From the NCBI GenBank assembly GCA_965261115.1, contig OZ253447.1, positions 647,625 to 711,624 of the forward strand: a DNA stretch of 64,000 nucleotides, in the 5' to 3' direction. This DNA comes from Candidatus Poribacteria bacterium (lineage in GTDB: Bacteria; Poribacteria; WGA-4E; WGA-3G). Under the pieces are notes generated by a model. It saw nothing but the letters and a program-made list of their open reading frames with translations, had not been told where the DNA came from and ran no database searches. Made by a program: the position numbers and the translations under genes. Of the stretch, positions 2,697 through 57,465 are shown piece by piece (within the stretch, counting starts at the first letter, position 1; the number at the start of each line of letters is the position of its first letter).

Positions 2697-3182
2697 ATGC
2701 AAACTGATCACAAACCATTATCTGCCGAGGCTTACTTCATAGCGGGCAATGAGAAGAGTAAGTCAGGGGACTATAAAGGGGCTATCGCCGCCTACACCCA
2801 AGCAATTCGAGTAAAACCAGATTTTGCGCGTGCCTACTACAACCGCGGAGAGGTGAAAGATAAACTGGGCCAGATACCCGAAGCAACAACAGATCTCCAA
2901 ATTGCAGTAAAACTTGCCAAACAAACCAACGATGTCGGTCTTACACTTACCATCGAACAGAAACTTCAATTACGTCGAATTACTGTCGAGCCAGGTAAAT
3001 GTGGTGGACGCCCCTGTATCCGCGGCATGCGAATTCGAGTTACAGATGTCTTAGGCTTGCTTGCCAACGGACTCTCTTTTAAAGAGATTCTTGAAGAAAT
3101 GCCAGATCTGGAAGCCGAAGATATTCTGGCATGCCTCCAGTTCGCTGCGCATAAAATGGACGCTCCCGTAACGACCACATGA
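2697..3182 (+). CDS. TPR-repeat / DUF433 fusion protein (antitoxin-like)
   Basis: Strong AAGGAG SD. N-terminal TPR-like repeats (AIAAYTQAIRVKPDFARAYYNRGEV); C-terminal DUF433 signature GKCGGRPCIRGMRIRVTDVLGLLANGLSFKEILEEMPDLEAEDILACLQFAA. Confidence 0.7.
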   Translation: MQTDHKPLSAEAYFIAGNEKSKSGDYKGAIAAYTQAIRVKPDFARAYYNRGEVKDKLGQIPEATTDLQIAVKLAKQTNDVGLTLTIEQKLQLRRITVEPGKCGGRPCIRGMRIRVTDVLGLLANGLSFKEILEEMPDLEAEDILACLQFAAHKMDAPVTTT

Positions 3183-11439: not shown

Positions 11440-12207
11440 TTAGGAGCGTGCCTGTAAGCGTGCAAGTTGTTCTCGGAGGCGTTCGACTTCTGCTTCAGCT
11501 TTCTGTCGGGCAAGAGTTTCTTGTGCCGCGCGTGCCTCCACATCCTCTGCGCGTGCCTCCGCATCCTCTGCGCGTGCCTCCGCATCTTCCGCGCGTGCGG
11601 CGTGCTGCTCCGCTGGCGTTTGGAGCCATTGCTCCGCAACCGGGTCGTAAACCCCCAAACGCCTCTCCCGTATATGGAAATCCAAACCGAGAACATCTGA
11701 ATGCACCCCGCCATCAACACTCGGCAGAATTGGGACATAGACTCCCTTTACCAACTGAAAGCCCATCAACGGTGAAGGCAGATAGAGTGCCTCAGCATCA
11801 TAGAGGAGATAGTTCGGTATGCCGAGCGCAGCGTAGAGCGCCATCTTGTCTGTTAGGTCATTCTGATAGGTCGTTTTGCTTGAGAACTCCATCACGAAAT
11901 CTGGAACCTTTCCCTCTTCCCATACCTTGTAAGTGTGTCGCTTCTTTTGCCCGATACCGAAAGAGACGAGGACATCGGGTGCGACGACTGCGCGGGGGTT
12001 GCCCTCGGTATAATATGTCAGAATATCACCAGAGACATAGACATCCGGCATCTGCGCGAAATGTGCCTTCAGCGTCTGCAAAAGCCAGAAAAGGATTTCG
12101 AGGTGGAGATCGCTAGCTGCCATAGGTTTACCGTCCGTTTCGGGGTAGAGGTCCGTCGTGTCTGTGGGTGCGTAAGGCATGTTACGCCCATTTTTATAGG
12201 TATCCAT
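11440..12207 (-). CDS. Uma2-family (DUF820) PD-(D/E)xK endonuclease-like protein with repetitive C-terminal coiled-coil tail
   Basis: GAGGAG SD. Uma2-like core (...DGKPMAASDLHLEILFWLLQTLKAHF...VYVSGDILTYY...). C-terminal AEDAEAR heptad repeats. Confidence 0.6.
   Translation of the reverse strand: MDTYKNGRNMPYAPTDTTDLYPETDGKPMAASDLHLEILFWLLQTLKAHFAQMPDVYVSGDILTYYTEGNPRAVVAPDVLVSFGIGQKKRHTYKVWEEGKVPDFVMEFSSKTTYQNDLTDKMALYAALGIPNYLLYDAEALYLPSPLMGFQLVKGVYVPILPSVDGGVHSDVLGLDFHIRERRLGVYDPVAEQWLQTPAEQHAARAEDAEARAEDAEARAEDVEARAAQETLARQKAEAEVERLREQLARLQARS
11528..11602. repeat. 21-bp tandem repeat (~3.5 units, GCGCGTGCCTCCGCATCCTCT) inside the 3' part of the Uma2 gene
   Basis: Seen directly; encodes the AEDAEAR repeats; also creates the spurious Pro/Arg-rich ORFs 11400..12116(+) and 11412..11738(-). 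Confidence 0.7.
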
Positions 12208-34898: not shown

Positions 34899-35483
34899 AT
34901 GAGGACATCCCAAGCATATTTCACGCCCGAAGAATACATCACTTTAGAACGCAAAGCAATCCCTGACGCTGAGATAGTTAGAAGCGAATATATCAACGGT
35001 AAAATAATTGGAAGATCCAGTTCTAACTGGGCACACAATGTTATTACAGGCAACATTGTCGCTGGACTTTACACCCGTTTCAGAAACAGGGGATGCTTCG
35101 TATTTGCCAACGAAATGCGTGTCAGTATTCCAGCAGCAAATTCCTATTTTTATCCCGATGTCGGCGTTGTCTGTGAAGAACCCCGTTTTGAAGACGATGT
35201 TCTTGACATACTCCTCAACCCCATAGTCGTCGTAGAAGTGCTTTCTCCGTCAACAGAGGCTTACGACAGAGGCGACAAATTCGCACACTACCGCCAACTC
35301 CAATCCTTACAAGAATACATCCTCGTCTCCCAAGACAAGGTCCGTGTCGATCACTACGTCCGACACGCAACACAATGGATCCTCACCGACTTCCAAGAAC
35401 TGGAGCAACACCTTCCACTCACCTCAATCCAATGCGAACTTCCCCTACAAGAGATATACGAAAACGTCCCGTTCCCTGAATAG
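34899..35483 (+). CDS. Uma2-family (DUF820) putative restriction-endonuclease-like protein
   Basis: Classic Uma2 pattern: ...YINGKII...HNVITGNIVAGLYTRFRNRGCFVFANEMRVSIP...YFYPDVGVVCEE...; GAGGA SD. Confidence 0.75.
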   Translation: MRTSQAYFTPEEYITLERKAIPDAEIVRSEYINGKIIGRSSSNWAHNVITGNIVAGLYTRFRNRGCFVFANEMRVSIPAANSYFYPDVGVVCEEPRFEDDVLDILLNPIVVVEVLSPSTEAYDRGDKFAHYRQLQSLQEYILVSQDKVRVDHYVRHATQWILTDFQELEQHLPLTSIQCELPLQEIYENVPFPE

Positions 35484-48993: not shown

Positions 48994-49231
48994 CAATCCG
49001 ATCAATATAGGTAAAACATGTTGTCAGTGACACCCTGCTAAAGCATGGGTGCTTGTGCGAAGCCTATACCACAGGTTCACTCCACAAGATTAAGTCCTGA
49101 CTACAGTAAAATATCGCGGTATCTTGGTGTGGTCGCCAGCACAATGTTTCGGATGCTCCCCAAGTCTGATTCCTTTTGGATACTGTGATCTGGATGGGGC
49201 AATATACAACCCGAAAGGGAGATTACAAACT
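48994..49231 (+). ncRNA. Candidate omega-RNA region for the adjacent IsrB (238-nt non-coding stretch immediately 5' of isrB)
   Basis: Inference from the known IscB/IsrB locus architecture (omega-RNA encoded upstream of and overlapping the 5' end of the ORF); no covariance evidence available here. Confidence 0.3.
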
Positions 49232-50254
49232 ATGTTTGTTCCAGTAACGAGTAAAACGGGTGGCAAGTTAATGCCGACACGTCCAAACAAGGCAGGTATG
49301 CTGATTAAGAAAGGATTAGCAACCCCCTATTGGTCTAATGGCATATTCTGTGTCAGACTCAACTACGAAGTGGAAACCGACTACACGCAAGAGATTGCTG
49401 TGGGTGTAGACCCTGGCAGCAAAAAAGAAGGCTTTACCGTGAAGTCTGAAGCACATACCTACTTGAATGTTCAAGCCGATGCCCATAACAAAGTCGGCAA
49501 GAAGATTGAAAAGCGTCGTGAGTTGCGGCGAGGGCGGCGTTCTCGGAAGTGTCCGAACCGCAAAAACCGCACCAACCGTCTTGCAAATAAAGAACGGATT
49601 CCCGCAGGCACACGTGCGAGATGGGATTGGAAACTCCGTATCCTTGACTGGTTGTCTAAACTCTATCCTATCACCCATGTCTGCGTTGAAGACATTAAGG
49701 CACGAACAATACAACGTGCTAACAAGTGGAATCAGTCTTTTAGTCCATTGGAAGTCGGTAAGCAGTGGTTCTACACTCAAGCGCAGAAGCGATGGAAACT
49801 GCTAACACTTCAAGGCTACGAGACAAAAGAGATACGCGATAGACTCGGTCTCAAGAAGTCGTCTAAAAAACTTGCTGAAACTTTTGACGCACATTGTGTA
49901 GATTCTTGGTGTCTTGCTTATCACACAATAGGCGGGCAAGATATACCTGATAATACCCGTGTATTCTGTATATCGCCGATCCCCATACGCAGGCGTGAAC
50001 TTCATAGACAAAACCCACAGAAAGATGGGAAGCGTCCACGCTATGGCGGCACGACTTGGAATGGATGGGTAAAGAACACACTCGTCAAACATGTTAAATA
50101 CGGTTTGACACGGATCAGTGGCTTTAGCAAACAAGGGATTTCTCTATATTCTCTGCGTGGAAAACGCTTGTGTCAAAACGCGAAAACACAAGATTTAAAA
50201 GTGCTAACACGACTCAACTTTAACTATAGGAGCGGTGTTTCCTGCGCCCGCTAA
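49232..50254 (+). CDS. IsrB-like OMEGA RNA-guided nickase (IscB homolog lacking the HNH insertion): PLMP domain, RuvC-I, Arg-rich bridge helix, RuvC-II, RuvC-III, TI domain
   Basis: Start at MFVPVTSKTGGKLMPTRPNKAGMLIKKG with AAGGGAG SD; this N-terminus is the hallmark IscB/IsrB sequence (PLMP motif here KLMP). RuvC-I AVGVDPGSKKEGFTV, bridge helix KRRELRRGRRSRK, RuvC-II ITHVCVEDIK, RuvC-III FDAHCVDSWCLAYH. Only ~70 aa between RuvC-II and RuvC-III, so no HNH. Confidence 0.75.
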   Translation: MFVPVTSKTGGKLMPTRPNKAGMLIKKGLATPYWSNGIFCVRLNYEVETDYTQEIAVGVDPGSKKEGFTVKSEAHTYLNVQADAHNKVGKKIEKRRELRRGRRSRKCPNRKNRTNRLANKERIPAGTRARWDWKLRILDWLSKLYPITHVCVEDIKARTIQRANKWNQSFSPLEVGKQWFYTQAQKRWKLLTLQGYETKEIRDRLGLKKSSKKLAETFDAHCVDSWCLAYHTIGGQDIPDNTRVFCISPIPIRRRELHRQNPQKDGKRPRYGGTTWNGWVKNTLVKHVKYGLTRISGFSKQGISLYSLRGKRLCQNAKTQDLKVLTRLNFNYRSGVSCAR

Positions 50255-50282
50255 AGCAGGGGTTTCCACACCGAAGATTTTG

Positions 50283-50498
50283 ATGAAGAAAGAACAAATC
50301 GTCTCCCAAAATCCACGAATTATGAATGGCAGGTTGGTCTTTGCTGGCACTCGTGTGCCGGTTGAAAGTCTAATTCAGCACCTCGCTGCAGGAGATTCAC
50401 TCAATAAATTTCTCGACCACTTCCCGACAGTGTCGCGTGAACAAGCAGTTGCTTATTTAGAAATGAACCTGGAATTCGCAGATGCGCGTGTTGAATGA
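50283..50498 (+). CDS. DUF433 domain protein (start at MKKEQIV)
   Basis: VFAGTRVPVESLIQHLAAGDSLNKFLDHFPTVSREQAVAYLE matches the DUF433 pattern; begins 29 nt after the isrB stop. Confidence 0.55.
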   Translation: MKKEQIVSQNPRIMNGRLVFAGTRVPVESLIQHLAAGDSLNKFLDHFPTVSREQAVAYLEMNLEFADARVE

Positions 50499-50643
50499 AT
50501 TCTCCATTTTTCTTGATTTTTACAACCAAATCTGGTATAATAATTGTTAATTTTCACAGCATCTGAAATGGTTCCACTCACACAAATTGAGAGTCCACAT
50601 TAGCACGCGCGACTACAAGCGTACCACCTACACTACAATAACT

Positions 50644-51666: not shown

Positions 51667-54600
51667 ATGACAGAAGCGTCAATTCACGTACAAGGTGCGC
51701 GAGAACACAACCTACGCAATATTGACATCCAACTGCCAAAAGATAAACTTATCGTCTTCACCGGCGTTAGCGGCTCTGGTAAATCTTCACTGGCAATTGA
51801 TACTGTCTATGCCGAAGGACAACGGCGATATATTGAATCTTTATCGGCGTACGCACGCCAATTCTTGGGACAACTCGGAAAACCAGACGTAGATGAAATC
51901 GTCGGGCTGTCCCCCTCTATCGCCATCAGTCAGGGATCAACCGGACATAACCCGCGCTCCACGGTCGCCACTGTAACCGAGATCTACGACTACCTGCGTG
52001 TGCTTTATGCCCGTGTCGGACAATTCCACTGTCCCGAATGTGGTCGTGAAGTCGGTTCACAAACCCCCACAGACATCGTCAACACTTTGCTCAACCACCC
52101 TGAACGCACAAGGCTCATCATCTTAGCACCGATCGCCAGAGGTTCCCGCGGCGCACATGAAAAAGAAATCGAGGACCTACGAAATGCCGGTTTCGCCCGA
52201 TTACGCGTTGATGGCGAAATACACGAAATCCGTCCAGGCTTCGCGCTCAGTCGCAACCAACGCCACGACATTGATCTCGTCATCGACAGGATTATCATCA
52301 AAGACGGCATCGAACCACGCATCACGCAAGCAGTAGATACAGCACTTTTGCGCGGAGAGGGCAGCATGCTTGTCCAAGTTGTGCCAACTGAAGGCGAGGC
52401 ATCCCCATTTCTATCAGAAGAAGACGATCTACTCTTTAGTAGGGACTACACCTGTTCGCACTGTCGGATAAGTTTCGTGAAACCAGAACCCCGCCATTTT
52501 TCTTTCAATAACCCCGACGGAATGTGCGAAAACTGCAGGGGGTTGGGTGTACAAATGGGGATCCTACCGCAGTTGATTATCCTTGATGATACCCTCTCTA
52601 TCATGAAAGGAGCTATCAGTCTGTGGGGACCCCTTAACACGCAAAAGCGCGCCACAGAAAAAGCCATTGCCGAAGCACTCGCAAAACATCTCGGATTTGA
52701 TCTCAAAACGCCTTGGAAGGAACTCACGCCGGAACAACAAAACGCCGTCCTTTACGGCACCGGCGACGACATCCTCACGATCACGATCCCCGCGAAAAAT
52801 ACACAAAAAAATCGAAAACAACGCCGACGACACCGCGTCCACTTTCACGGTATCATCCCCGCCGAAGAACAGAAGCACTACTTCGATGATGACGACGAAG
52901 CCGATGAAGACGACTTCCCTGATTACTTCGTCAAAATGACCTGTCGAGTATGTGAAGGCACCCGACTGAACTCTTGGACAAAAGCCATAACGATAGACAA
53001 TACCCCAATAACCAACATCCTTGAAATGTCTATTCAGGACGCGACCGATTTTTTCAATGATCTTGAACTCCCAGAACGCGAGGCGTTCATCGCGCAGGAA
53101 CTCTTAAAGGAAATTCGCGGACGACTCGGATTCCTTATGGATGTCGGATTGGGATACCTGACGCTCTCACGTCCCGCACCGACGCTTTCCGGCGGTGAAG
53201 CGCAACGCATCCGTCTCGCCAGCCAAGTAGGCGCAGGGTTACGCGATGTTACTTACGTGCTTGATGAGCCGAGCATCGGGTTACACCCACGCGACCACGC
53301 GGGGCTACTCACCACCCTCCTAAACCTGCGGAATCAGGGCAACACCGTCATTGTTGTTGAACACGATGAGGCAACCATGTTGGTCGCCGACTGGATCGTC
53401 GATTTCGGGCCTGGCGCAGGCATCAAAGGCGGAAAGATAACCGATATCGGGACACCCGCACAATTCATTAAGGAGAGTAGGACCCTTACTGCCCAATATC
53501 TCCGTGGCGATAAGGTGATCATCCAGCCTGAATCCCGCCGCCCAACAGGAGACAACTGGATACAGATACAAAACGCACGGCAAAACAACCTGAAAGCGAT
53601 CAGTCCTAAAATACCAATCGGCACCCTCTGCTGTGTAACAGGTGTCAGCGGCTCTGGAAAGAGTTCCTTAATCCACGATATCCTCTACAATGCACTCGCT
53701 CGCGACCTCATGAAGGCAAAAACCGTACCGGGCGACTACGACGATATCCGAGGGATCATCAAAGAAAAAGAAGTGCCTATCTCCGATGTTATTGACAAAA
53801 TTATCAACATTAACATGGCACCCATCGGACGAACACCACGCTCCAACGCCGCAACCTACACAAAGGTGTTTGATGCGATTCGCGCACTCTACGCCGGCTT
53901 GCCTGATGCAAAATTGCGAGGCTATAAACCGGGACGGTTCAGTTTCAATGTTACCGGAGGCAGATGTGAGGCATGCAACGGCAACGGTGCCAAAAAAGTT
54001 GATATGGGACTCCTCTCTGATGTCTGGGTGGAGTGCGAGGTATGCAATGGGAAACGCTTTAACAACGAGACCCTCGCAATAAAATATAAAGGGAAAAATA
54101 TCGCTGAAGTCCTCGAAATGGATATTGATACCGCACTCGTCCACTTCGCCGATATTCCAAGAGTCGCAAGAGGCTTAAAACTACTCCACGATGTCGGCCT
54201 CGATTACATTAAACTCGGACAACCCGCACCGACACTTTCCGGAGGCGAGGCGCAACGCATCAAACTTTCAAAGGAACTCTCAAAACGAGGAACCGGCAAA
54301 ACCCTTTATATCCTTGATGAACCCACAACAGGGTTGCATTTTGACGATGTAAATAAACTACTAACGATTCTTCATCGACTCGTAGACGATGGTAACACCG
54401 TCGTCGTCGTAGAACATAACCTTGAGGTCATCAATTCCGCAGACTATCTCATCGACTTAGGACCAGAGGGCGGTGTCGGCGGTGGCACTATCGTTGCTGA
54501 AGGCACACCTGAACAGATCGCTGAGATGCCCGAATCTTACACCGGACAAGCACTCCGCGGTGATTTCGATATCTGGCGTGATGCCAAGCAACGACTCAAG

Positions 54601-57465
54601 GAACCTGAACTTGCTTACGCACTCGGACAAACACACGAAGAACGAACTGCAATCGCTGTGCAAGGTGCTACAGAAAATAACCTCAAAAATGTTGACATCG
54701 ATATCCCGCATCGGAAAATGACGGCGTTGACAGGTGTCAGCGGCTCTGGAAAAACCTCCCTCGCACTTGATACCATCTACGCCGAAGGACAGCGGCGTTA
54801 TATCGAGACTCTCAGCACCTATGCACGTCAGTTCATAGGACAGATGGAGAAACCGAAAGTCTCAAAAATCGAAGGACTTTCACCCGCCATCGCAATTTCG
54901 CATGCAAACGCAGGGCAAAACCCACGCTCAACAGTCGCAACAATCACCGAAATACATGACGGACTCCGCACGCTTTACGCCAGATGGGGTAAACCCCACT
55001 GTCCCGACTGCCTTGTAGAGGTCCAATCCCAGAGTGCCGAACAAATAACACAACAGGTTTTTGAAATGCTCCCGCAAGAACGGGTGGATGTTCTCGCCCC
55101 CCTCACAAACTTTATGCTTCTCCCAGAAACTAACGAAGGCATAACAAGGGGTAAAATCATTGACATCAACGCCAATGAATCTGCTTACGGGCTAAAGGGA
55201 AACGAGGATTACGCCGAGGCATTCAGTCGATTGCAACGCGCTGGTTTTGCACGCGTCCAAATTGATGGCGAAATTCACAGACTTGATGAAGCCCCCAAAC
55301 TCAGCAAAGGCATTCGCCATGAAATTTTTATCGTCATTGATCGCGTTGAACTCGTTGACGAAGAAAAGGCGCGGTTTACGGAAGCCGTTGAGTTAGCACT
55401 CCTCCAAAGCGGCGGGTTCGTACTCATCCAAAAAACGCGTTCCACCGCTCGCGCGTCCACGAGAAGCAACCGATCCAAACAGAAAACCACGGAAAAACCA
55501 GAGCCGGAGACGACAGATAAAAAATTCTTCAGTGAACACGCCATGTGTGCCGCCTGCGGCAACAACTTCGCACAGTTGACACCACGCCACTTCTCCTTTA
55601 ACAACAAAGTCGGCGCGTGCGACTTCTGCGACGGACGCGGCAGGAATTTACACCCACCACACAACGCATGCAGCCAATGTCAAGGCACACGTCTGAAACC
55701 GTTTCCAAGCCACGTCATGTTTGAAGATACAACCATCGCTGAATTGATGGAAATGTCAATTACCGAAATTATTGCGTTCTTCAATGTCCGGTTGAAACAG
55801 ATTGAAGCGCAAGTCGGCAATGACACACAAAACGGTAGTGCGGATCCTTCTGTCCCAAAAGGGGTGTCAACCTCCAGAGCGACACATCCTGCACTTCATG
55901 TACATACCTCGCCTGAATTTGAAGCCGAAGTCCTCCAGCAAATTCAGATACGCCTTCAGTTCTTAGAAGATATCGGACTCGGTTACCTCGCATTAGACCG
56001 TGGCGCACCGACGCTTTCGGGCGGCGAAATGCGTAGAATCCAACTCGCAAGTCAACTCGGCAGCGGGCTCACCGGCGTAACCTATATCCTCGACGAACCG
56101 AGCATCGGGCTACACCCACGCGACCAAGAACGTCTCATCAACGCACTCAAGGAACTCCGCGATATCGGCAACAGCGTCCTCGTCGTTGAACACGACCGCG
56201 ATACAATATTAGCCTCCGACCATGTGATTGACTTCGGACCTAAAGCAGGCAAAGGCGGCGGTGAAATTATCGCCATCGGGGCACCAGATACCTTTACTGA
56301 CGGCACCATTGCTACACAGAAACCGTCTACCCAGTCTCTGACGCAAGCCTACCTCTCCAATGAAGTAGAAATCCCTGTTCCAAAAACGCGACGTAAAGGG
56401 ACAGGCAAACAGTTGGCAATATCCGGTGCGAAAACCAACAACCTCAAAAACATTGATGTCAAGATTCCGCTCGGAACACTCACCTGCGTAACCGGCGTTT
56501 CCGGGTGCGGAAAAAGCTCACTCGTTGAAGGCACCCTAAAACCAGCACTTGAAAGTCGTAGCTCCATCAAAACAGGTGATGCTAAAGATCGCCGTTATAC
56601 CCACCATATCAGCGATAGCCAGTGGGAACCCATATATAACGACTACGGAATACCGGAGTATGAAAGCATCCGCGGTGTTAGCCATATCAAGCGACTCATC
56701 AACGTAGACCAGAAGGCGATCGGTGAAACACCGCGCTCTAATCCTGCTACTTATACCGACCTGTTCACGAAAATCCGTGAACTCTTCGCCGAGCAACACG
56801 ACGCAAAGATGCGCGGATTTGGTATCGGTATGTTCAGTTTCAATCTTGCTGCTGGACAGTGCCACGTATGCGAGGGGCACCGTTTCAATCGCGTCGAGAT
56901 GCATTTTCTGCCGGATGTCTGGATGCCGTGTGAAGCGTGTAATAGCACCGGCTACAATATAGATACGCTTGAAATCCGTTATAAAGGAAAAAATATCGCC
57001 GAAGTCTTAGATATGACGGTAGATGAAGCACTCACATTCTTCAGTGAAAGTTCACGTATCTGCCGAACACTCCAGATGTTAGCCGATGTCGGGTTGGGTT
57101 ACATCCAATTAGGGCAATCAGCGACGACACTCTCCGGTGGTGAAGCACAGCGCGTCAAACTCGCGAAAGAGTTAGCGCGTCGTCAAACCGGTTCAACGCT
57201 CTATATTATGGACGAACCGACAACAGGACTCCACTTCGACGACATCCAAAAGCTCCTCAAGGTCTTGAACACACTCGTCGATGCAGGGAACACCATCATC
57301 GCCGTCGAACACAACATCGACGTCATCAAATCCGCAGACTGGATCATCGACTTGGGACCCGAGGGCAGCAAACGTGGCGGAGAAGTCGTTGCAATGGGCA
57401 CCCCCGAAGAGGTCGCAAAGGTCCAAAAATCCCACACCGCACGCTTCCTACGTGAGGTATTGTAG
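51667..57465 (+). CDS. uvrA: Tandem-fused double UvrA (two complete UvrA units in one 1932-aa polypeptide)
   Basis: Unit 1 from MTEASIHVQGAREHNLRNIDIQLPKDKLIVFTGVSGSGKSSLAIDTVYAEGQRRY... to ...AEGTPEQIAEMPESYTGQALRG. Unit 2 from ~residue 990 TAIAVQGATENNLKNVDIDIPHRKMTALTGVSGSGKTSLALDTIYAEGQRRY... to ...GTPEEVAKVQKSHTARFLREVL. Each unit has two ABC modules and the UvrA zinc-finger CxxC pairs. Confidence 0.85.
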   Translation: MTEASIHVQGAREHNLRNIDIQLPKDKLIVFTGVSGSGKSSLAIDTVYAEGQRRYIESLSAYARQFLGQLGKPDVDEIVGLSPSIAISQGSTGHNPRSTVATVTEIYDYLRVLYARVGQFHCPECGREVGSQTPTDIVNTLLNHPERTRLIILAPIARGSRGAHEKEIEDLRNAGFARLRVDGEIHEIRPGFALSRNQRHDIDLVIDRIIIKDGIEPRITQAVDTALLRGEGSMLVQVVPTEGEASPFLSEEDDLLFSRDYTCSHCRISFVKPEPRHFSFNNPDGMCENCRGLGVQMGILPQLIILDDTLSIMKGAISLWGPLNTQKRATEKAIAEALAKHLGFDLKTPWKELTPEQQNAVLYGTGDDILTITIPAKNTQKNRKQRRRHRVHFHGIIPAEEQKHYFDDDDEADEDDFPDYFVKMTCRVCEGTRLNSWTKAITIDNTPITNILEMSIQDATDFFNDLELPEREAFIAQELLKEIRGRLGFLMDVGLGYLTLSRPAPTLSGGEAQRIRLASQVGAGLRDVTYVLDEPSIGLHPRDHAGLLTTLLNLRNQGNTVIVVEHDEATMLVADWIVDFGPGAGIKGGKITDIGTPAQFIKESRTLTAQYLRGDKVIIQPESRRPTGDNWIQIQNARQNNLKAISPKIPIGTLCCVTGVSGSGKSSLIHDILYNALARDLMKAKTVPGDYDDIRGIIKEKEVPISDVIDKIININMAPIGRTPRSNAATYTKVFDAIRALYAGLPDAKLRGYKPGRFSFNVTGGRCEACNGNGAKKVDMGLLSDVWVECEVCNGKRFNNETLAIKYKGKNIAEVLEMDIDTALVHFADIPRVARGLKLLHDVGLDYIKLGQPAPTLSGGEAQRIKLSKELSKRGTGKTLYILDEPTTGLHFDDVNKLLTILHRLVDDGNTVVVVEHNLEVINSADYLIDLGPEGGVGGGTIVAEGTPEQIAEMPESYTGQALRGDFDIWRDAKQRLKEPELAYALGQTHEERTAIAVQGATENNLKNVDIDIPHRKMTALTGVSGSGKTSLALDTIYAEGQRRYIETLSTYARQFIGQMEKPKVSKIEGLSPAIAISHANAGQNPRSTVATITEIHDGLRTLYARWGKPHCPDCLVEVQSQSAEQITQQVFEMLPQERVDVLAPLTNFMLLPETNEGITRGKIIDINANESAYGLKGNEDYAEAFSRLQRAGFARVQIDGEIHRLDEAPKLSKGIRHEIFIVIDRVELVDEEKARFTEAVELALLQSGGFVLIQKTRSTARASTRSNRSKQKTTEKPEPETTDKKFFSEHAMCAACGNNFAQLTPRHFSFNNKVGACDFCDGRGRNLHPPHNACSQCQGTRLKPFPSHVMFEDTTIAELMEMSITEIIAFFNVRLKQIEAQVGNDTQNGSADPSVPKGVSTSRATHPALHVHTSPEFEAEVLQQIQIRLQFLEDIGLGYLALDRGAPTLSGGEMRRIQLASQLGSGLTGVTYILDEPSIGLHPRDQERLINALKELRDIGNSVLVVEHDRDTILASDHVIDFGPKAGKGGGEIIAIGAPDTFTDGTIATQKPSTQSLTQAYLSNEVEIPVPKTRRKGTGKQLAISGAKTNNLKNIDVKIPLGTLTCVTGVSGCGKSSLVEGTLKPALESRSSIKTGDAKDRRYTHHISDSQWEPIYNDYGIPEYESIRGVSHIKRLINVDQKAIGETPRSNPATYTDLFTKIRELFAEQHDAKMRGFGIGMFSFNLAAGQCHVCEGHRFNRVEMHFLPDVWMPCEACNSTGYNIDTLEIRYKGKNIAEVLDMTVDEALTFFSESSRICRTLQMLADVGLGYIQLGQSATTLSGGEAQRVKLAKELARRQTGSTLYIMDEPTTGLHFDDIQKLLKVLNTLVDAGNTIIAVEHNIDVIKSADWIIDLGPEGSKRGGEVVAMGTPEEVAKVQKSHTARFLREVL

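Follow-up and report, generated by a model that had tools for sequence, protein, structure and literature searches.

An intact IsrB/omega-RNA element of the IS200/IS605 type at a host start codon in Candidatus Poribacteria

IsrB proteins are related to the ancestor of Cas9, have been used as programmable nickases and are, to our knowledge, the smallest known relatives on the Cas9 lineage. HEARO is the guide RNA of the related protein IscB, and HEARO elements are reported to insert beside ATGA or GTGA. The closest described system is the IsrB of Desulfovirgula thermocuniculi (DtIsrB, structure 8DMB), in which R323 and Q326 read the G and A of the target-adjacent motif (TAM) NTGA, and the core of IsrB omega-RNAs is formed by an adaptor and a nexus pseudoknot (Hirano et al. 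2022, PMC9581776). Published IsrB TAMs comprise NTGA, NTG and NTGG, and published IsrB work found the first stem-loop of the RNA (SL1) to be dispensable for nicking. Guides of the IscB type need external transcription, and iscB is co-oriented with the upstream gene (Meers et al., 10.1101/2023.03.14.532601). Most published IscB/IsrB loci have no adjacent tnpA. Here, a stretch of 64,000 nucleotides from a Candidatus Poribacteria bacterium (NCBI GenBank assembly GCA_965261115.1, contig OZ253447.1, positions 647,625 to 711,624 of the forward strand; hereafter the window) was analysed. Window positions 49023-50282 (+) are one intact 1,260-bp IsrB/omega-RNA element of the IS200/IS605 type, present as a single copy in the window. 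It is very probably a non-autonomous insertion sequence of the ISC1/IsrB type within IS200/IS605, carrying an omega-RNA scaffold and isrB, the gene of a predicted HNH-less RNA-guided nickase.

Relatives of the element were collected by a genome scan. It yielded 264, every one from a Candidatus Poribacteria assembly; 80 loci were kept for analysis. A search for further copies had been proposed in a preliminary description of the locus, made from the sequence alone, and it defined both the element ends and the guide-adjacent boundary. Nucleotide conservation across 77 related loci set in abruptly at 49023 (GTCA...), and the 20 nt 5' of this position were unrelated from locus to locus. As conservation begins only there, 48994-49022 is host DNA. 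A 98.4%-identical copy (L001) had unrelated flanks, and the stretch shared with it ran from window position 49023 to about 50287. Multi-locus conservation profiles agreed with both ends.

Empty sites were reached via orthologues (94-95% identical) of the HEAT-repeat gene that precedes the element. These led to two contigs, L081 and L084, in which the HEAT gene is directly followed by a DUF433 gene and the element is absent, so that its presence is polymorphic. In L084 the empty junction reads ...AATCAATATAGGTAAAAATATGCT joined to ATGAAGAAAGAAC, and in the window ...GATCAATATAGGTAAAACATGTT is followed by the element and then by ATGAAGAAAGAAC. This comparison of empty and occupied sites places the element at 49023-50282 and reveals no target duplication. 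The sequence ATGA occurs once in both empty sites, as the start of the DUF433 gene, and ATGA at 50283-50286 is therefore host DNA. The insertion point lies exactly between the ribosome-binding region of the DUF433 gene and its start codon. The earlier assignment of the element to a place between a HEAT-repeat and a DUF433 gene was thus correct, while its extent, given as 48994-50270, had to be replaced. The covariance model of the family (R1, see below) found no match in the empty-site loci. Metagenome pattern scans for the predicted empty junction and for the 3' end of the HEAT gene both returned nothing, and exact-sequence look-ups with the window DUF433 and HEAT proteins gave no match.

The isrB coding sequence was placed at 49232-50254 (+), from the ATG at 49232 to the TAA stop at 50252-50254, and encodes 340 aa with an N-terminus reading MFVPVTSKTGGKLMPT. 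A mechanical list of open reading frames (ORFs) had begun the gene at TTG 49124. This longer start, already doubted in the preliminary description, was rejected because homologues are mostly 339-342 aa long and begin MFVP (3,318 database homologues, of which the best 120 were nearly all of this length and beginning). Copies in the 80 related loci followed the same pattern of start and length. All of the motifs reported at first sight were found in the ORF, namely GVDPG, the bridge helix RRELRRGRRSRK, VCVEDIK and HCVDSWC. The domains were delimited as PLMP (about residues 1-54), RuvC-I (D60), bridge helix (about 88-106), RuvC-II (E153), RuvC-III (H221/D224) and a TAM-interacting domain (about 282-340, with R312 and Q315).

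The N-terminal PLMP domain claimed earlier was recovered by Pfam (RRXRR, PF14239, residues 3-157, 3.8e-30), whereas the motif itself reads KLMP in the window copy and PLMP only in the family consensus. An AlphaFold model was calculated from a mixed Poribacteria/Firmicutes alignment, with a mean predicted local distance difference test (pLDDT) of 79 and a predicted TM-score (pTM) of 0.80; an earlier model from 35 near-identical homologues (pLDDT 53) was discarded. The PLMP region aligns with DtIsrB residues 8-59. In the model used, it is predicted as four strands and a helix with a pLDDT of about 90, and a predicted helix at 88-106 bears RRELRRGRRSRK. No Pfam match to an HNH domain and no match to a zinc finger were found in the protein, and the gap between E153 of RuvC-II and H221 of RuvC-III, only 67 residues, leaves no room for an HNH domain, as had been proposed.

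Among all PDB sequences, the best match was DtIsrB 8DMB over residues 3-291, at 1.6e-38 with the single sequence and 9.4e-44 with the family profile. The same entry was the best fold match of the AlphaFold model (E 2.7e-26, TM 0.73/0.75, 343 columns); alignment to IsrB structures had been suggested beforehand as a check. An alignment with full-length DtIsrB and 28 other IsrBs showed no variation at D60, E153 and D224 among the IsrBs of Poribacteria and Firmicutes; H221 was invariant inside the Poribacterial clade. The TAM-interacting domain was left unaligned by pairwise sequence search and was aligned by multiple alignment and fold comparison. Here GKRLCQ aligns with GKRIGQ of DtIsrB, so that R312 corresponds to R323 and Q315 to Q326, the two TAM-reading residues. 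By sequence and by predicted fold, the protein is an IsrB and not an IscB or a TnpB. Every IsrB-defining feature open to sequence analysis was present, and on this basis the element joins the known IsrB family. The public records examined label these proteins only as 'RRXRR domain-containing' or hypothetical.

The omega-RNA scaffold doubles as the left end of the element and spans 209 nt at 49023-49231 (+). The preliminary description had considered the whole 238-nt non-coding stretch 48994-49231 as the omega-RNA region; covariation upheld the part from 49023 onwards, while the first 29 nt belong to the host. A hand-built structure of 57 pairs in 10 helices was tested on 71 aligned scaffolds. 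It consists of a stem S1 (49023-49029 with 49095-49101), SL1 (49031-49051), SL2 (49052-49088), a long-range stem (49104-49123 with 49179-49192), stem-loops at 49125-49138 and 49149-49169, and a terminal hairpin (49210-49219) that overlaps the Shine-Dalgarno (SD) sequence GGGAG. Across the 71 copies 90.8% of cells were paired, compared to 32-45% when partners were slid. Compensatory changes were detected at 32 pairs, and none of 500 shuffles reached the observed values.

Two pseudoknots were identified in the scaffold. In one, ACCA at 49068-49071 (+) in the SL2 loop pairs with TGGT in the loop at 49130-49133; 95.5% of cells were paired, and one pair swaps between G-C (32 copies) and A-U (31 copies). 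In the other, the loop sequence CCCCA at 49158-49162 (+) pairs with TGGGG at 49195-49199; 98.8% of cells were paired, and one pair swaps between U-A (34 copies) and A-U (29 copies). They correspond to the IsrB adaptor and nexus pseudoknots, respectively. The covariation supports a structured omega-RNA encoded in the 209 nt 5' of isrB.

The family covariance model R1 gave one match in the window, with 237 bits. The Rfam model HEARO (RF02033) was matched end to end at 49023-49226, beginning exactly at the element start, so that the omega-RNA model search suggested beforehand did return a match, albeit a weak one (22.6 bits, E 0.074). Applied to the validated Dt omega-RNA, the Poribacterial family model recovered nothing past SL1, and the case for RNA homology across phyla is therefore built on the shared 5' motif, the architecture of the pseudoknots and the HEARO matches. 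A candidate guide segment, CAATATAGGTAAAACATGTT, lies at 49003-49022 (+) in host DNA just outside the element, in the 5' untranslated region of the DUF433 gene. Its length of 20 nt was assumed from DtIsrB, and its position was set according to PMC9581776 and the preprint of Meers and colleagues (10.1101/2023.03.14.532601). The candidate guide sequence is also present in the L084 empty site.

A subterminal hairpin was delimited at the right end at 50233-50273 (+), with an outer stem CGGTGT/ACACCG, a pyrimidine internal loop TTCC/TTTCC and an inner stem. Its loop CTAAAG holds the isrB stop codon, and the stop is placed in the same way in every copy. An imperfect palindrome at the stop had already been suggested as the right-end hairpin; that reading held, with amended coordinates. 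Over its 13 pairs 94.8% of cells were paired (31-45% with partners slid), and 11 of the 13 pairs had compensatory changes. The hairpin was accepted as real because of this covariation across copies and not because of its own stability. SL1 and the right-end hairpin of one element resembled each other more than they did those of other elements (p 2e-8), which fits the two subterminal hairpins of IS200/IS605 elements. SL1 as a transposon-end hairpin also fits its dispensability for nicking. No inverted terminal repeats were present at the element ends.

The last element bases before the host TAM form a terminal spacer, AAGATTTTG, at 50274-50282 (+), and this boundary is fixed by the empty sites. 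In the 72 loci in which both ends could be parsed, a conserved GAAGAT and 0-6 variable nt precede the TAM, and sequences diverge after it. The right end is followed by ATGA, or by GTGA in two loci, from which the TAM was deduced by genomic comparison. In the window it is ATGA at 50283-50286 (+), made up of the DUF433 start codon and the base after it.

The family is multi-copy in genomes of Poribacteria species. L047, L050 and L060 are 100%- and 99%-identical copies at different positions of chromosome OX639973, and 99%-identical pairs occur in further genomes. Near-identical copies at different sites of one chromosome indicate that the family moved recently. Like most published IscB/IsrB loci, the Poribacterial loci are without an adjacent tnpA. 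L058 and L071 are decayed, with stops at codon 37 and codon 165, and L003, L005, L039 and L054 contain 25-90 extra nt inside the scaffold or element. L051 and L055 share an insertion site, where the elements are 97.7% identical and the downstream host gene only 87%, which makes the element younger than the host divergence. L009 and L010 also share a site; here the host ORF is 95% identical and the elements, of different subfamilies, only 78%.

The position of the element directly before a start codon recurs in the Poribacterial clade. Empty sites were reconstructed for the 72 parsed loci, and ATGA sites were used as controls. In 49 of 72 loci (68%), the ATG or GTG of the TAM opened an ORF of 60 aa or more, compared to 26% of control sites (p 1e-13), and an SD motif was found in the left flank of 32 loci (44%) versus 4.8% of controls (p 2e-23). 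When the set was reduced to 68 non-redundant sites and the ORF threshold was raised to 100 aa, 51 sites lay outside ORFs, and 30 of these were same-strand start codons (59%, versus 14% of comparable controls, p 2.6e-13). Ten downstream ORFs were checked and nine had Pfam matches; several were full-length from the TAM codon, judged by domain coverage or a signal-peptide-like N-terminus. Examples include a sulfatase, a mandelate-racemase-like enzyme, a TonB receptor, an isocitrate/isopropylmalate dehydrogenase and LarA. One host gene 3' of a shared insertion had 84 synonymous and 43 non-synonymous codon differences between species. Among independent DtIsrB-like loci of other phyla (Firmicutes/Deltaproteobacteria-type), the NTG of the TAM was the called start of the next same-strand gene in three of five. 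In the window, the isrB stop lies 28 nt before the host ATG, and a purine-rich AGGAG directly precedes the right-end hairpin. No description of start-codon placement was found in the literature searched, which excluded the original HEARO paper (Weinberg 2009).

To separate selection, under which only old copies would stand at start codons, from targeting, copies were tallied by hand according to whether they had a near-identical sibling. Start-codon placement was counted in about 9 of 17 copies with such a sibling and in about 40 of 55 others. The need for transcription from outside and selection against gene disruption explain much of the placement. With somewhat less than even confidence, we suggest that IsrB elements may use the NTG(A) TAM to live in host transcription units, being inserted or kept, in the same orientation, exactly between SD/spacer and start codon. 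If so, the host promoter would transcribe the externally encoded guide, and the host gene would stay translated, either by coupling to the isrB stop or through the AGGAG brought near by the right-end hairpin. The placement itself is observed in the Poribacterial clade; a general, selected strategy with active upkeep of downstream translation is put forward as a proposal only.

A mechanism can be outlined by analogy with published work on DtIsrB, IscB and TnpB, from which nicking, guide use, restorative homing and mobilisation by TnpA in trans are taken. The HEAT gene runs in the same direction, its end 29 nt ahead of the element, and no promoter-like or terminator-like site was found between the two. 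With the guide outside the element, transcription has to begin in host DNA further upstream, and it would enter from the HEAT-repeat gene. The 5' part of the RNA, some 20 nt of host DNA up to position 49022, would serve as guide, and the next 209 nt would fold into the omega-RNA scaffold. IsrB would be translated from the ATG at 49232, with its SD sitting in the last scaffold hairpin. A Y1 transposase acting in trans could excise the element, for which SL1 and the stop-codon hairpin are the likely recognition sites, and leave a donor joint CAATATAGGTAAAACATGTT-ATGA that is a perfect guide match with TAM. The IsrB-omega-RNA complex might then recognise the restored joint, with the TGA in the TAM being read by R312 and Q315, and introduce a nick. 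The element would be put back by recombination with a sister copy. This homing or restoration step is modelled on IscB and TnpB.

Several observations weigh against the identification of a mobile, guide-using IsrB element. The HEARO score of 22.6 bits is far under the Rfam gathering score of 83; the validated DtIsrB omega-RNA is likewise under it (56 vs 83 bits). Pairs 2-3 of S1 are unpaired in about half of the family copies. At these pairs (49024-49025 with 49099-49100; alignment columns 2-3 with 84-85), GTCA... then faces ...TTTTC and not ...TTGAC; the window copy retains both. The right-end hairpin of the window, taken alone, is thermodynamically ordinary (z = -1.4) and folds modestly, and its inner stem departs from the family consensus, for which reasons this copy might be a poor transposase substrate. 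No transposase or recurrent neighbour gene was found within 2.5 kb in the 80 loci, none was present among the window ORFs scanned, and none adjoins the window element, in keeping with the earlier statement that the element is solitary and has no adjoining Y1 TnpA. Furthermore, restorative homing has been published for IscB and TnpB and not for an IsrB nickase. Alternatively, the window copy might be an immobile relic, with intact gene and RNA but no longer excised or not expressed, a passenger between the HEAT and DUF433 genes. Its inner stem (TGCGCCCG...CAGGGG) deviates even from that of the 98%-identical L001, the hairpin is only marginally stable, no transposase is nearby, and disrupted family copies do exist (L058, L071). 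We nevertheless consider a relic unlikely, as no catalytic or TAM-reading residue is missing from the intact ORF, the omega-RNA conforms to the family structure with a score of 237 bits, close relatives without the insertion make it evolutionarily recent, and family members moved recently.

The placement data raise a different alternative, in which the host has co-opted the element, so that the IsrB-omega-RNA complex or the right end regulates translation of the downstream gene, here DUF433, and is not mainly a selfish nickase. In 59 to 68% of copies the element directly abuts the start codon of an intact host gene on the same strand, the codon differences given above (84 synonymous versus 43 non-synonymous) point to purifying selection on such a gene, and both the AGGAG before the hairpin and the distance of 28 nt from isrB stop to host ATG would suit such a role. 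The nuclease residues are fully conserved, however, the family is multi-copy, mobile and polymorphic as selfish elements are, and the placement is also explained by outside guide transcription together with selection against gene disruption; co-option therefore appears very unlikely. As to the protein, we considered whether it might be an IscB whose HNH domain has degenerated, or a RuvC nuclease of the TnpB kind, given that the PLMP/RuvC-I/bridge-helix part at the N-terminus is matched by the NCBIfam IscB model and by IscB structures. The IscB matches stop there, at residues 3 to about 150, the NCBIfam model covering residues 5-156 at 91.6 bits (cut-off 175) and IscB PDB chains the N-terminal third (E 1e-8 to 1e-16), whereas 8DMB is matched at full length by sequence and fold. 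In the fold ranking of the model, 8DMB was followed by IscB structures and then RuvC resolvases, with Cas12f/TnpB-like folds only at E > 1e-3, and neither an HNH nor a zinc-finger match falls in the 67 residues between RuvC-II and RuvC-III. Profile, PDB and fold tests thus refuted an IscB or TnpB identity, the chance of which we regard as negligible. A 5' untranslated regulatory RNA as an alternative identity was rejected on the IsrB/omega-RNA evidence. The preliminary description had named two outcomes that would speak against IsrB, a lack of structured RNA upstream and membership in a TnpB-like zinc-finger family, and neither was found.

The HEAT-repeat gene upstream of the element starts at ATG 48379 (+); this start was chosen because its orthologues are all 204 aa long. 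The DUF433 gene downstream occupies 50283-50498 (+) and encodes 71 aa. The interval from the HEAT gene to era (window 48994-50586) varies among close Poribacteria. It contains DUF433 alone (the window minus the element, and L081), DUF433 with DUF5615 and an 88-aa ORF (L084), or nothing (L083). In L082 a PemK-like module follows the HEAT gene, on a short contig that ends before any era gene. The interval looks like a hotspot for small toxin-antitoxin-like cassettes. Elsewhere in the window, a UvrA-like ORF of 1,932 aa (51667-57465, +), roughly double the normal length of UvrA, carries two sets of the UvrA motifs in a single chain, and the related contig L083 has a called orthologue of 1,937 aa. 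A TPR-DUF433 fusion and two putative endonucleases of the Uma2 family (PF05685) were located at 2697-3179 (+), 34899-35480 (+) and 11443-12207 (-), and several PhyH dioxygenase genes were also present.

Recognising these proteins as IsrB improves annotation, as records describe them only by the RRXRR domain or as hypothetical. For a specialist, the identification as such is routine; what the precise anatomy, the large Poribacterial family with its recent mobility and the placement at start codons add is useful but incremental. The clade offers a 340-aa protein and a 209-nt scaffold, with ends, TAM and RNA structure defined and hundreds of natural variants. Being multi-copy and recently mobile in uncultivated sponge symbionts, the family is a place to ask how OMEGA elements without TnpA spread, and the start-codon placement suggests how such elements secure guide transcription while sparing the interrupted gene.

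Compared with known systems, the element is closest to DtIsrB (Desulfovirgula thermocuniculi, 8DMB; Hirano et al. 2022, PMC9581776). Both proteins have PLMP, a split RuvC with bridge helix, short REC and HNH linkers, and a TAM-interacting domain, with 34% identity over residues 3-281, a fold TM of 0.73, and the same catalytic D/E/H/D and TAM-reading R and Q. Both omega-RNAs open with GTCA and an SL1 with a CTRAAG loop, contain the two pseudoknots and hold the SD in the last hairpin. The native DtIsrB locus (L085, 3040-3100) has the same right end of hairpin, internal loop, GAAGAT and TAM, and ends at TTGA, the published TAM; the TAM is NTGA in both. The inner right-end hairpin of the DtIsrB locus, CCCCTGAATGAATTCAGGGG, recurs unchanged in the Poribacterial copy L044. 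The Poribacterial system differs in its shorter protein (340 vs 353 aa), in a host from a mesophilic sponge-symbiont phylum and in its shorter scaffold (209 vs 262 nt), from which some peripheral stem-loops must be missing.

IscB/HEARO systems (RF02033; OgeuIscB 7XHT/7UTN) share PLMP, RuvC-I, the bridge helix and an upstream guide RNA with its 5' guide outside the element. They differ in that the window protein is without HNH, its RNA scores 22.6 against 83 with HEARO, and the adaptor pseudoknot, degenerate in IscB RNAs (PMC9581776), is kept here. Another RNA-guided RuvC nuclease carried by IS200/IS605 elements is TnpB, which is believed to restore the element after excision; it has another fold arrangement (E > 1e-3), its RNA sits at the 3' end and has a 3' guide, and its TAM lies 5' of the target. 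With IS200/IS605 elements of the ISC1 group and their TnpA-less copies (Meers et al., 10.1101/2023.03.14.532601), the element has in common the lack of target duplication and inverted terminal repeats, similar subterminal hairpins, insertion beside a fixed tetranucleotide, mostly no adjacent tnpA, and co-orientation with the upstream gene. In the literature searched, exact placement at host start codons is not described for them.

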